Of a stretch of DNA of 15,324 nt, positions 7,187-11,535 are shown in pieces. The notes below the pieces were generated by a model. The model was not told the origin of the DNA and ran no database searches. It saw only the letters and a list, made by a program, of their open reading frames with translations. The stretch is taken from positions 134,525-149,848 of the forward strand of contig JBHLRS010000004.1 of the NCBI GenBank assembly GCA_048882325.1, in the 5' to 3' direction. The stretch is from Candidatus Thorarchaeota archaeon (GTDB lineage Archaea; Asgardarchaeota; Thorarchaeia; Thorarchaeales; Thorarchaeaceae). Each line of letters opens with the position of its first letter. Position 1 is the first letter of the stretch. The position numbers were made by a program, and so were the translations under genes.

Positions 7187-10060
7187 ATGAATATCTCAAA
7201 GCGAATTGTAGTCACATTCGTCACTGTTGCATTGATACCGATTTTAGTTATTTCTACATTATCGATACTAGCAATAAACGATGTATCAAATGCAAACGCA
7301 GCTGATGCCGCAGAGGAACTCAAAGCAGAGGAACTCGCAAACCTGATGAGACTCGCAAATGACACGGGGCTTTTCATCGAAGAGAGATGGAAGAACTACG
7401 TTGACGGTGTCTATATGATGGAATCTTATTGTGAAGACCTCTTCAATGGACGAATCAACGCGACAGCGCGATATAGTTACTACTGGAATCAAACAGAGGA
7501 ACCCAATTGGGGAGATTTGACATTCGAAACAGATCCAGCAATCGTTGACGCGTATTTTTCCGATTTCATCACTTTTGAAACAGATTGTTACTATATGCCT
7601 CGGTTTGAGTTTAACAACAATGATCCTCATGATCTTTCTCCGGGTACACAGTACGCGCTTGATGTTTCGTCCAATATGGTAAACATCTTCAGAGCCCTTC
7701 ATGAGATGAATGAGGACTTTAGATGGTTATACATGGGATTCGACCTTGGAATCTCAGATCAACACCTGTTCAGGAATTATCCATTTGATGATTTGGTCTA
7801 CTTCCAGTGGGATGAAAATGAGGAGATTGGTCCACCAGAGAATGACTATGACCCGAATGCAGAGGACTGGTACACTAATGTAGTAGCACAGGACCCAGGT
7901 GATGATAGTGTTGTTTTCACTGAACCATACATCGATCCTTCGGTCGGGCTCGTGATTTCAATGGGAAGACCAGTTCGGTTTGACAATGGGACATTGATTG
8001 GAGTAGTTTCAGCAGATGTAACAATGGCAACAATAAATGAAAAGGTCCTGAACCTCGAAGTTCTTGAGAATGGATATGCATACTTGCTTGATGATACTGG
8101 AGTTGTGGTTGCACATCCCGATCTTGACACGTTTGATGACCCTCTACCAATAACCTCTCTAGAGTTTGATTCACCAACTAGCACAGAAGCTCTCGACTTC
8201 GCAAGTCTCCTAACCTCCACAGTTTTGATTCAAGAGTTTGGTCGAGAAGAATTTCAAAAGAATGGAGAAACATGGCACATGGCTTTTGTTAATGTAACAA
8301 ACACAAAGTATGTGCTTGCCATTGTTGTTCCAAACTCTGATGTGATAGGTCCAGCATCAGCGATGTTGAATTCTGTTGGAACGCAGACACTCATTCTTAC
8401 TATTGCATTAGGTGCCGTTCTTGCGGTTGTGGCAGGAGTAATCTCTGCTGTGTCATATCGTAGAGCGAATTCTGTCATTGAACCCATCACTGAGATGACT
8501 CGACTGGTTAACAAGATGGCAAGGCAGGACTTTACCAGGGGTATCACAACGGTGGGTGCGATGTATGAAGAGGTTGGTACAACCGTAGATGCTCTTCTTA
8601 GTTTTCAAGAGGCTGCGAGGTTTGGAAATCAGGCCTTTATTCGAGGAGACCTGAATCGAGCGTTAGCCAACTATCAGAACCTTCTCGAGATCAGTCAGAG
8701 GCTTCAAATTGAAGTCGGAATTCAGACAATGCTGCTCAACATTGGAAATGTGTTCAGACAACGTGGTGACACAGGAAACGCAATGGATTACTATTCTAAG
8801 TCTATGGCGATTGCTGAGCGATTGTTAGCCAAGGCGAAGGAGGACGGTGCAGACGAACGGGATGCGTTGGGGAGAATTGCATCTCTACACCACAACATGG
8901 CACTTGTTGAGATGGATCGCGGGAATGCGGATAAAGCGATGGAGATTCTGGAAGATGCAGAAGCTATCGATCGTATAATGAAGAACCAGTATGGTCTTGC
9001 CAAAAGGTTTGATGCAATGGGACTCGTCTTGATGAGAGATGGTCGCTACAATCAAGCTCAGTCAAAGTTCAATGAAGCTAAAGAGATTGCAGAGGGAATT
9101 GACTATCAAAGAAGCCTTGCATACATTAACTACCATGAGGGAGAACTTAACCAAGTTCAAGGAAAATGGAAGAAGGCTGAAGATTCGTATAATGAAGCGA
9201 TTGCTTTTGGTCAGGAAACTGATGAGCTCTGGCTGGTTGTGTATGCAATGCAGCGTTTGGCAGATGTCTTGGATCAGCGCAACAAACCTAGTCATGAGAT
9301 TCGTAGAAAGGCGGAGAAACTCAGACGGTCAATCATGTTCAAGAAGAGCGTAACATTTGTGATTGACTACTCTGGTAGTATGCAAGCACAGAATCGAATA
9401 AGAGCCGCTGTGAGAGGTGCGTTGGAGATTCTGCATAGTCAGGTCAATCCACAAGACCAGGTTTCTGTGATAGTTTTCAACTCGTCATATCGTGAACTCC
9501 TCCCGCTCACATTGAAAGGAGAGAGAGATGATGACGAGAACAAAATCGTAAGAACTCTAAAGTCTTTGAAGTATCCTAATTATGCCACAGCATTCTATGA
9601 CGCATTAGGAAGAGCCTTGGAGGAACTTGAGAAAATCGAGTCAAGCGAACACCGGTGGGTAATTGCTTTGACAGATGGCCAGGACAATAGTTCTGAAATC
9701 TACTCTTTGGATGTCCTTGAGGGAATAATCACAGAGAAGGACCGAATGAAGAGGAAAAGACTTCTGACGATAGAGGGCTTTATTCGAGACCACCATCTGG
9801 ATGTCAATTTACTCATAATTGGCGTTGGACAGGAATTAAGCCAAAGGGCAGATACTGACAAACGAATAATATCTGCTCAAACTGGACAGCCAATCACAAC
9901 AGAAGAGCTTCTGGAGTCGATTTGTGAGAGAGTTCCACAGGGTCAATACATCTCTGTAGTAGATAGCGCAAATGTGCGACTAGATATTGAGAAAGCGTTT
10001 GAGAAGGTTGGTGTATTGATGGCACAGATGGAAGTCGGAGGGACAACTACAGATTACTAG
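7187..10060 (+). CDS. Membrane receptor: TM1 - dCache_1 sensor - TM2 - HAMP - TPR repeats - VWA
   Basis: TM1 IVVTFVTVALIPILVISTLSILAI. dCache hallmarks: WLYMG, YDPNAEDWY, VVFTEPYID, LIGVVSADV, NGYAYLLDDTGVVVAHPD. TM2 LILTIALGAVLAVVAGVISAVSY. HAMP IEPITEM...QDF...EEVG. TPRs such as LLNIGNVFRQRGDTGNAMDYYSKSMAI and LHHNMALVEMDRGNADKAMEIL. VWA with an intact MIDAS (FVIDYSGSM, TAFYDAL, IALTDGQDN, IIGVG). GAGGT lies 9 nt upstream. Confidence 0.88.
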   Translation: MNISKRIVVTFVTVALIPILVISTLSILAINDVSNANAADAAEELKAEELANLMRLANDTGLFIEERWKNYVDGVYMMESYCEDLFNGRINATARYSYYWNQTEEPNWGDLTFETDPAIVDAYFSDFITFETDCYYMPRFEFNNNDPHDLSPGTQYALDVSSNMVNIFRALHEMNEDFRWLYMGFDLGISDQHLFRNYPFDDLVYFQWDENEEIGPPENDYDPNAEDWYTNVVAQDPGDDSVVFTEPYIDPSVGLVISMGRPVRFDNGTLIGVVSADVTMATINEKVLNLEVLENGYAYLLDDTGVVVAHPDLDTFDDPLPITSLEFDSPTSTEALDFASLLTSTVLIQEFGREEFQKNGETWHMAFVNVTNTKYVLAIVVPNSDVIGPASAMLNSVGTQTLILTIALGAVLAVVAGVISAVSYRRANSVIEPITEMTRLVNKMARQDFTRGITTVGAMYEEVGTTVDALLSFQEAARFGNQAFIRGDLNRALANYQNLLEISQRLQIEVGIQTMLLNIGNVFRQRGDTGNAMDYYSKSMAIAERLLAKAKEDGADERDALGRIASLHHNMALVEMDRGNADKAMEILEDAEAIDRIMKNQYGLAKRFDAMGLVLMRDGRYNQAQSKFNEAKEIAEGIDYQRSLAYINYHEGELNQVQGKWKKAEDSYNEAIAFGQETDELWLVVYAMQRLADVLDQRNKPSHEIRRKAEKLRRSIMFKKSVTFVIDYSGSMQAQNRIRAAVRGALEILHSQVNPQDQVSVIVFNSSYRELLPLTLKGERDDDENKIVRTLKSLKYPNYATAFYDALGRALEELEKIESSEHRWVIALTDGQDNSSEIYSLDVLEGIITEKDRMKRKRLLTIEGFIRDHHLDVNLLIIGVGQELSQRADTDKRIISAQTGQPITTEELLESICERVPQGQYISVVDSANVRLDIEKAFEKVGVLMAQMEVGGTTTDY

Positions 10061-10066
10061 GAGGTG
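10060..10066 (+). promoter_or_regulatory. Strong Shine-Dalgarno GGAGGTG overlapping the upstream stop codon (possible translational coupling)
   Basis: TAG GAGGTG TA ATG AGA ATG. Spacing is 2 nt to ATG 10069 and 8 nt to ATG 10075, which favours 10075 as the real start. Confidence 0.7.
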
Positions 10067-10074: not shown

Positions 10075-11535
10075 ATGGTACAGTCTACAACCCAAACTAA
10101 GAAGAAAGGAAGTTTCAGAACCAACGTGATACTCACTTTTCTAGTGATCTCGTTAGTGTCTTTAGCTGCCACCGGTGTGGTATCATTGACTTTCGTGAAC
10201 TTGATAGGCAACTCAACCAGAGACCAGAGTTCGACTGCGCTTGAGAATCAGATTCAGATAAACATGGATGCAACTGCACAGAAAACAGCCCTCGTCATCA
10301 ACCAGAAACTTGCCAGTGCTGAAGGGATGATTGCAGCTGCAGCAGAGGAGCTTGAAGCGTTGTTTGACACAGGTTCGACCTATGCCAATCGAGAGGTGTA
10401 CTATGACCTCTTGTTCGAAGATGATTCAGTATCACCCGCACCAGCAGACAATCATTTTGATCCCAATTATGGTCTCAATGTTTCTTGGGACTACAGCAGC
10501 TGGTATGTAGCAGATACCGATTCAACCAACTACAACTCAACCTATGCTGATATTCCCGCAAATGCAGACAAACTTGGGCGTGTTTCTAATATGGATTATA
10601 TCTTTAGAGCTATACACGACCAAGTTGAATTCAGATGGCTGTATATTGCATTTGCAGATGATGGTTTGTTCATTAATTATCCGGGTAGTATATTGGGTCC
10701 AATTTCGGATGTGCTGAGACTCGCTGAGCCATATGACCCACGTGGAGAAGATTGGTATCAAGCAATATGGACCGGAGGTGACACTATGACCTTTGTTGAA
10801 CCATATTACGACGAGTTCGATAATGTGCTTCTGATTTCCATTGGAACAGTTGTATATCGTAATGACATTCCATTTGCAGTCATCTCTGGAGATATCACTA
10901 TAGAGGATATCAGAGAGAAAATCATCAATGTGGAGGTTCTGGACACGGGCTATGCATTCCTGTTAGACAGAACTGGCGGAGTTGTTGCTCATCCAGAGGT
11001 TGCAGATGAGGACTATCTGTTGGGTCTTCCAGAATTGCTGAATGTGGAAACTAATTCAGACTTGACTAGTAGTGATGTCAATCAGATAACTAGTGTTGCT
11101 CTGGGAACTTCGGGAACTCTGAGGTATGTCCGAGATGGAGCTGAAAAGATACTAGTATTTACACAGGTTGGAAAAGGAAATTACATCTGTGTGATTTCTG
11201 TACCACTTGCTGAAGTCTTAGAGAGCATTCCATTACTTGAGGCAAGAATTGCTGAACAGAATGCAGAAGCCGCAACCTACATCATTCTTGTCACCATTGG
11301 AGGCATCATTGTAGCTGGAGTCGTGGCTGTTGCCATTTCGAATACTATTACTAGGCCATTGCAGTATCTCATGGACCTAGCGGAGAGAAATGCCGCAGCA
11401 AGGATACTTGATCAACCTCTCGATACCGGAGACCTTCAAGTTGATGCATCATATATCTCGCAAGATGATGAGATTGGAGAACTTGCCCGAGCATTTCAGG
11501 GAATGCTTGACTCCATTCGAGAGGATGAAGAATAG
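10075..11535 (+). CDS. Paralogous membrane receptor: TM1 - dCache_1 - TM2 - HAMP, no cytoplasmic output domain
   Basis: TM1 VILTFLVISLVSLAATGVVSLTFV. FRWLYIAF, GLFINYPG, YDPRGEDWY, FVEPYYD, ISGDIT, TGYAFLLDRTGGVVAHPE. TM2 YIILVTIGGIIVAGVVAVAI. HAMP ITRPLQYL...DDEIGELARAFQGML, followed by a stop. The ORF track start is 10069; SD spacing favours 10075. Confidence 0.87.
   Translation: MVQSTTQTKKKGSFRTNVILTFLVISLVSLAATGVVSLTFVNLIGNSTRDQSSTALENQIQINMDATAQKTALVINQKLASAEGMIAAAAEELEALFDTGSTYANREVYYDLLFEDDSVSPAPADNHFDPNYGLNVSWDYSSWYVADTDSTNYNSTYADIPANADKLGRVSNMDYIFRAIHDQVEFRWLYIAFADDGLFINYPGSILGPISDVLRLAEPYDPRGEDWYQAIWTGGDTMTFVEPYYDEFDNVLLISIGTVVYRNDIPFAVISGDITIEDIREKIINVEVLDTGYAFLLDRTGGVVAHPEVADEDYLLGLPELLNVETNSDLTSSDVNQITSVALGTSGTLRYVRDGAEKILVFTQVGKGNYICVISVPLAEVLESIPLLEARIAEQNAEAATYIILVTIGGIIVAGVVAVAISNTITRPLQYLMDLAERNAAARILDQPLDTGDLQVDASYISQDDEIGELARAFQGMLDSIREDEE

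Follow-up and report, generated by a model that had tools for sequence, protein, structure and literature searches.

The window analysed here, a 15,324-nucleotide stretch of a Candidatus Thorarchaeota genome, carries on a single strand the genes for a beta-propeller/Zn-ribbon protein, two transmembrane receptors (the long and the short receptor) and a protein resembling the arginine decarboxylase SpeA (table 1). Each receptor has a dCache_1 domain (Pfam PF02743) that passes the 45-bit gathering cut-off (long receptor, 65.4 bits; short receptor, 50.5 bits), and a whole-genome profile search found these two to be the only dCache_1 genes of the genome. The short receptor also contains a HAMP domain (33.2 bits), beyond which the Pfam scan of this protein returned no output domain. 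Hydropathy and charge mark transmembrane segments at about residues 3–34 and 396–424 of the long receptor and 18–47 and 399–428 of the short receptor; on this topology both Cache domains are extracellular and the HAMP and TPR-VWA regions cytoplasmic. In both sensor domains, the arginine with which amino-acid receptors bind the carboxylate of their ligand is replaced by glutamate, and the speA-like gene starts 38 nt after the end of the short receptor. A first-pass annotation of this DNA, made from the sequence alone, had listed these peptides with their positions and placed speA directly downstream; peptides and positions were exact on translation, and the neighbouring gene is indeed SpeA-like.

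Table 1. The conserved cassette and the pocket residues of its two receptors (positions in the window).
Feature	Position	Strand	Basis or remark
Beta-propeller/Zn-ribbon protein gene	5693..7138	+	Weak Pfam propeller and Zn-ribbon matches; first in conserved cassette
Long receptor, 957 amino acids: transmembrane segment, dCache_1, transmembrane segment, TPR repeats, VWA	7187..10060	+	Pfam dCache_1, TPR_12, VWA_2
YDPNAEDWY block of long receptor	7847..7873	+	Glu226 (7862-7864) at PctA Arg126
Distal Tyr248 (7928-7930) and Asp277 (8015-8017) of long receptor	7928..8017	+	Equivalent to PctA Tyr144, Asp173
Short receptor, 488 amino acids: transmembrane segment, dCache_1, transmembrane segment, HAMP	10069..11535	+	Pfam dCache_1, HAMP
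YDPRGEDWY block of short receptor	10732..10758	+	Glu227 (10747-10749) at PctA Arg126
Distal Tyr246 (10804-10806) and Asp275 (10891-10893) of short receptor	10804..10893	+	Invariant in 48 orthologues
Predicted SpeA-type, pyridoxal phosphate (PLP)-dependent arginine decarboxylase, 613 amino acids	11574..13415	+	NF003763 and PDB matches

In the amino-acid sensor PctA, Tyr121, Arg126 and Trp128 contact the carboxylate of the ligand, and Tyr144 and Asp173 its amino group (Gumerov et al. 2022, PMC8915833). The R126A mutation lowers affinity 61-fold and D173A abolishes binding (PMC8915833; PMC6974571). Searching PDB chains with phmmer aligned the blocks of both receptors without gaps to those of PctA (YDPRSRPWY), PctB (YDPRRRPWY) and Mlp24 (YDPRKRPWY), at E-values of 1e-9 to 5e-11. 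The sole change within this conserved nine-residue block was at the Arg126–Pro127 pair, where both receptors have Glu and Asp. Since the alignment is gap-free, the Glu therefore occupies the position of PctA Arg126 by homology and not through a chance motif match, and its side chain probably faces the pocket. The other ligand-binding positions are retained: PctA Tyr121 corresponds to Tyr221 in the long and Tyr222 in the short receptor, Trp128 and Tyr129 are present as WY in both, and Tyr144 and Asp173 align with Tyr248/Asp277 and Tyr246/Asp275, respectively. The alignment bears out two readings of the first-pass annotation, namely that Arg has become Glu in both paralogues and that the amine-binding Tyr and Asp are kept. 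The Trp and the distal Tyr are 16 residues apart in the short receptor and 19 in the long receptor, the latter two above the 13–17 residues published for dCache_1AA, the amino-acid class of these domains (PMC8915833).

We then aligned the short receptor from 48 diverse Thorarchaeia orthologues, which share 56–86% identity. The Arg126 position was occupied by Glu in 38 and by Asp in 10 of them, Trp229, Tyr246 and Asp275 were invariant, and the Tyr121 position held Tyr or Trp in all 48, with Phe found there too among the loci fetched from other genomes. In the long receptor the Arg126 position was Glu in 19 of 21 Thorarchaeia paralogues, the remaining two reading Gln followed by Glu. In an alignment of the long paralogue (A2), Asp277 was invariant and the Trp more than 90% conserved. 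An exhaustive HMMER search of 1.8 billion representatives returned 1277 relatives. In the domain alignments of the best 150 of these 1277, Arg prevailed at the Arg126 position (110 sequences), against 25 with Glu and 11 with Asp, and the acidic forms were concentrated among the closest matches.

Three further observations concern the sensor family. Judged by its motif (FDPSNEDWY...PYF...GMD), the Arg-to-Glu variant is also present in an ordinary chemoreceptor, the 691-residue methyl-accepting chemotaxis protein (MCP) P0221, which has an MCP signalling domain. A 502-residue dCache_1 protein filed under the EukProt transcriptome of Platysulcus tardus (P0168) matches the short sensor over nearly its full length at an E-value of 1.4e-17, and could be either a true eukaryotic homologue or prokaryotic contamination of the culture. 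Within the short receptor (P0004), the FRWLY and FINYPGS strands at residues 188–207 (about 10630–10689 in the window) are invariant in Thorarchaeia. Arg189 occurs only in the lineages f1, f8, f11, f13 and f14 (GTDB families are cited by number), which have lost Arg202 on the adjacent strand, as if an Arg on the pocket side had changed places between the two strands.

Structural comparison led to the same group of sensors. AlphaFold2 modelled residues 1–440 of the long receptor with a mean predicted local distance difference test score (pLDDT) of 87, and the short receptor with 69 overall and 83–92 over residues 221–280, the pocket region; an insertion of about 60 residues in the short receptor, which carries the invariant Trp140 and Trp145, was modelled with low confidence. 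The top Foldseek matches of the short receptor were amino-acid dCache domains. Foldseek and VIA-align together put both sensors among the amino-acid-binding dCache domains. Against PctA and Mlp24, VIA-align gave Z about 20 and a root-mean-square deviation of ~2.5 Å over ~236 residues; Z values were 20–22 for alpha2delta subunits, 19.4 for PctD, 18.7 for 3LIB and 17.8 for TlpQ. The long sensor domain reached Z about 20 to alpha2delta, Mlp24, Mlp37 and PctA. For this domain (7187–8506 in the window) eukaryotic calcium-channel alpha2delta subunits were the best structural matches (Z 20–22), level with the amino-acid sensors of bacteria. In these archaeal proteins the VWA domain is cytoplasmic, and two Asgard relatives of the Arg type, P0137 and P0154, have weak Pfam VWA_N matches.

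Compared with the described classes of dCache_1 sensors, the receptors share with dCache_1AA (PctA/PctB/PctC, Mlp24/Mlp37, Tlp3, CtaA and alpha2delta) the fold, the best sequence matches (E 1e-9 to 1e-11), the YDPxxxxWY block, the distal Tyr and the Asp. They differ from that class in having Glu or Asp for its defining carboxylate-binding Arg126, in ectodomains of ~360 rather than ~240–270 residues, in their outputs (HAMP only and TPR-VWA, as opposed to kinase, MCP or cyclase) and in forming an operon with SpeA. The amine class dCache_1AM (PctD, PacA, McpX and Methanosarcina mazei 3LIB) is derived from dCache_1AA; the Arg is lost in this class, whereas the Asp and the aromatic pair remain (Cerna-Vargas et al. 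2023, PMC10589655), and its archaeal members have been reported from Halobacteriota only (PMC10589655). Beyond the lost Arg, the receptors have in common with it the WY, the equivalent of Asp235 (Asp275 and Asp277) and a hydrophobic-x-Ser element, L255-I256-S257, of which Ser257 is invariant, as mapped by sequence inspection against the text of that paper. The dCache_1AM class further features a lid insertion, with an Arg103–Asp133 pair and a cation-pi Trp155, in a region outside the part of the receptors that aligns to 3LIB. We nevertheless rejected membership of dCache_1AM: the alignment to 3LIB begins after the Trp-Tyr, leaving the AA-type YDPxxxxWY block of the receptors unshared, and the replacement of the Arg is specifically acidic in the receptors but unconserved in dCache_1AM.

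McpU (putrescine) and TlpQ (histamine/polyamine) (PMC6234866; Gavira et al. 2018) belong to a polyamine class described as still uncharacterised (PMC10589655) and provide a model principle, in which a Tyr and Asp residues hold the primary amine (Tyr208, Asp210 and Asp239 in TlpQ), a Glu contacts a second nitrogen (a ring nitrogen in TlpQ; PMC6234866) and the pocket is strongly negative. The residue constellation of the class is Tyr208/Asp210/Asp239/Glu170. The receptors resemble them in their large ligand-binding domain. The YDPRxRPWY block, however, is a hallmark that only amino-acid binders carry and that McpU and TlpQ lack (Gavira et al. 2020, PMC6974571), whereas the receptors keep it, and TlpQ stands structurally below the amino-acid sensors. 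A profile of the receptor family searched against the PDB found Mlp24 first at 7.7e-13 and 3LIB second at 8.6e-12, with McpU at an E-value of 0.46 and TlpQ unlisted at E-values up to 10, so this search gave no sign of a specific kinship behind the comparison with McpU and TlpQ that the first-pass annotation had put forward. Because Mlp24 leads the profile, McpU is insignificant and 3LIB aligns only after the Trp-Tyr, the family appears, on its sequence, to be an AA-type domain with a charge reversal, outside the AM and McpU/TlpQ branches. Our literature searches turned up neither a dCache_1 variant with Arg126 changed to Glu nor a cassette of SpeA and receptors in Asgard archaea.

The SpeA-like protein matched NF003763 (biosynthetic arginine decarboxylase; TIGR01273) over its full length (residues 3–604) with 350.1 bits against a cut-off of 369, and the arginine decarboxylases 3NZP, 3NZQ and 3N2O of the PDB at E-values of 5e-54 to 2e-48. 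Profile searches of its own genome, which is 93% complete, returned no PdaD and no match to the S-adenosylmethionine decarboxylase (AdoMetDC) type (PF02675), and as far as homology can identify such enzymes the cassette SpeA is the sole recognisable arginine decarboxylase of this genome. Two genes of the arginase/agmatinase family lie on other contigs (C55 and C71), away from the cassette.

Among 87 Thorarchaeia genomes, the receptor pair was present in 71 and SpeA in 76, and where pair and speA share a contig, speA directly follows the short receptor in nearly every genome. The order propeller, long receptor, short receptor, speA was intact in all 20 loci that we fetched from other Thorarchaeia, which span 15 of the 16 pair-bearing genera, and the intergenic gaps of the cassette were mostly 0–50 nt, or the genes overlapped by 1–4 nt. 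In G076 (C7:15034–15414) the short receptor is reduced to a fragment with two stop codons beside an intact speA. In G058 (C1) a complete short gene with speA stands some 180 kb away from the long gene, which is accompanied by an N-terminal part of another short gene.

We surveyed the distribution of decarboxylases over 400 Asgard genomes and collected another 40 loci outside Thorarchaeia, which represent nine GTDB families of the phylum. The SpeA-type enzyme was found only in f1, f8, f10, f11, f13, f14 and a single f12 genome; no receptor pair was detected in the latter, and the other SpeA families all hold the receptor clade. No SpeA-type match was obtained in f21 (0/14 genomes), f22 (0/135) or f23 (0/4). 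Sampled genomes of these families encode PdaD, a pyruvoyl enzyme, instead, at sites not linked to the receptors (90 kb apart in G224). At the fetched loci, the conserved core everywhere was the receptor pair with the propeller gene, including in Arg-type and speA-less lineages. Families f8, f10, f11 and f13 have an acidic short paralogue with speA adjacent, either downstream of the pair or, in f11 and f8, divergent beside the long gene. G195 has its speA some 6 kb upstream, still on one contig. Both paralogues of f21 keep YDPRxRxWY and have no speA nearby. In f22, f23 and f20 the short paralogue is acidic or otherwise non-Arg (FDYKTDDWY in f22) and speA is missing from the neighbourhood, where genes for an acyl-CoA ligase and a thiolase occur. 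Both kinds coexist in one f10 genome, G138, where speA accompanies the acidic pair (L035) and the gene for ribosomal protein L3 comes after the Arg-type pair (L036). The f13 cassettes (L025:12135–13574, L026, L027 and L059) also carry, directly after speA, a second PLP-dependent decarboxylase of the ornithine/diaminopimelate/arginine type of about 480 residues.

Hence the receptor pair without the Arg and the PLP-type enzyme move as one cassette. Among the Asgard loci that could be judged, short pockets without the Arg were adjacent to speA in 37 and not adjacent in eight, and those with the Arg were adjacent in none and not adjacent in six. The co-occurrence of variant and speA that the first-pass annotation had proposed to look for was thus observed, every speA-adjacent pair having lost the Arg and no Arg-type pair being adjacent to speA, with the caveat of the eight Arg-lost pairs that have no speA nearby. 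Acidic pairs in SpeA-less lineages therefore mean that the acidic residue alone does not imply a link to SpeA. The linkage spans six GTDB families, down to ~30% receptor identity and with overlapping genes. Maximum-likelihood analysis of the short sensors united the sequences linked to speA in essentially one clade (SH-aLRT 94) and made the Arg-type f21 sister to the group of f22, f23 and f20.

We propose that the receptor pair has been retuned from amino acids to an amine without a carboxylate and is functionally coupled to SpeA, with agmatine or a polyamine as the lead candidate, and we put the probability of this at about one half. The long and short transmembrane receptors would probably work together as a pair, possibly as a heterodimer. 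The amino-group half of the pocket (distal Tyr, Asp and the Trp-Tyr pair) is kept, and the Arg that salt-bridges the alpha-carboxylate of the ligand has become Glu or Asp. A pocket of this kind would be expected to exclude amino acids and to prefer primary amines with no carboxylate. The Glu may replace or repel the carboxylate, or may add a second negative charge around a single ammonium, as in the Asp pair of TlpQ. Our leading guess for the ligand is agmatine, putrescine or another polyamine, although any amine without an alpha-carboxylate would fit; the first-pass annotation had called for a ligand cationic at both ends, which is not required, as a monoamine would suit the pocket equally. 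With the receptor genes putatively co-transcribed with speA, the cassette may couple agmatine or polyamine synthesis to the external level of the amine, and the signal might pass through the HAMP domain, the cytoplasmic TPR-VWA region and the beta-propeller protein with no kinase involved. These features make the two proteins good candidates for agmatine or polyamine receptors of an Asgard archaeon.

Several observations weigh against this proposal. The sensor domain is extracellular, and SpeA is cytoplasmic. Published dCache_1AM domains bound neither agmatine nor putrescine (PMC10589655); a sensor does not come to bind polyamines simply by losing the Arg. Some speA-linked members have Gln, Asn or an aromatic residue at the exact Arg126 position, with acidic neighbours (short paralogues of g16 and of one g9 locus, L009; long paralogues of f13, f10 and f14). 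The neighbours of the eight Arg-lost pairs without adjacent speA (f22, f23 and f20) are unrelated to amines, and SpeA was absent from all five f22/f23/f20 genomes tested for it. Finally, loss of the Arg and adjacency of speA amount to just one or two independent contrasts on the tree (sign test p = 1), and shared ancestry alone could explain the co-occurrence of receptors and speA. A functional link would thus fit the pattern, which is, however, no statistical proof of one.

The same observations bear on three other explanations. The ligand could be a cation other than an amine (ammonium, a metal, or protons if the pair senses pH) or a neutral molecule, with the acid serving to exclude amino acids and speA a merely inherited neighbour. 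This would account for the acidic pairs that occur with neither SpeA in the genome nor amine genes nearby, it sits well with a speA association of one or two tree events, and dCache_1 domains do bind many classes of ligand (PMC10589655). We nonetheless consider it unlikely, as the amino-group Tyr and Asp and the Trp-Tyr pair, which amino-acid and amine sensors have in common (PMC10589655), are invariant, and speA has stayed linked to diverged receptors in all six families. The pair could instead still sense an amino acid in an altered pose, most plausibly arginine, the substrate of SpeA, with the acid contacting the guanidinium or the alpha-ammonium group. Sensors of a substrate commonly stand beside the enzymes that consume it, apart from the acid, both the motif and the fold conform to the amino-acid type, and PctB and Mlp24 bind arginine with the same fold according to the titles of their structure entries. 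An acid at the alpha-carboxylate site should, however, repel an amino acid, where removal of the Arg alone already costs PctA 61-fold (PMC8915833), and the f21 lineages that keep the Arg are precisely those unlinked to speA, which leaves arginine sensing quite improbable.

One or both pockets might also be empty, with the Glu carboxylate filling the site of the ligand carboxylate and the domain acting as a pseudo-receptor, a structural or dimerization partner. A short receptor without an output domain would suit such a role, and pocket decay does occur in the family, since the long paralogue of f22 and f23 has lost the distal Tyr and Asp as well (VNQ and GIE). In Thorarchaeia, by contrast, the Trp, Tyr and Asp do not vary, and throughout the class both paralogues retain the acidic residue; this conservation points to selection on a working pocket and makes a ligand-free pair highly improbable.

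A bolder extension of the proposed amine sensing, which we regard as doubtful, is that the cassette forms a kinase-free Asgard module that reads extracellular agmatine or polyamine and controls SpeA by protein contacts instead of phosphorylation. Its parts would be the dCache-TPR-VWA receptor, the dCache-HAMP partner and the beta-propeller protein. Such a module would serve archaea as a circuit for polyamine homeostasis or for autocrine agmatine signalling, and it would be assembled from the dCache and VWA parts that also make up eukaryotic alpha2delta and CACHD1. Polyamine metabolism feeds the synthesis of hypusine and agmatidine in archaea and eukaryotes.

The ligands of most prokaryotic sensors are unknown, and the two dCache_1 classes defined by motif, for amino acids and small amines, allow thousands of them to be annotated. 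Should the receptors prove to bind an amine, an amino-acid motif that is intact except for the reversed charge of one residue, next to an arginine decarboxylase gene, would supply a simple and testable third annotation rule. It would also give the first predicted signal for any Asgard archaeal receptor and link a kinase-less output (TPR-VWA and propeller) to polyamine metabolism. Should it turn out that they bind no amine, the conserved cassette would still mark a new signalling module of Asgard archaea.

Divergent from the cassette lies a gene of the HDAC family (4535–5626, minus strand), which was also present in 14 of the 20 fetched Thorarchaeia loci. We considered it as an acetylpolyamine amidohydrolase and rejected this assignment, as HDAC6 domains matched best at 5e-58 and acetylpolyamine amidohydrolase only at 4e-32; the gene is merely a positional neighbour of the cassette.

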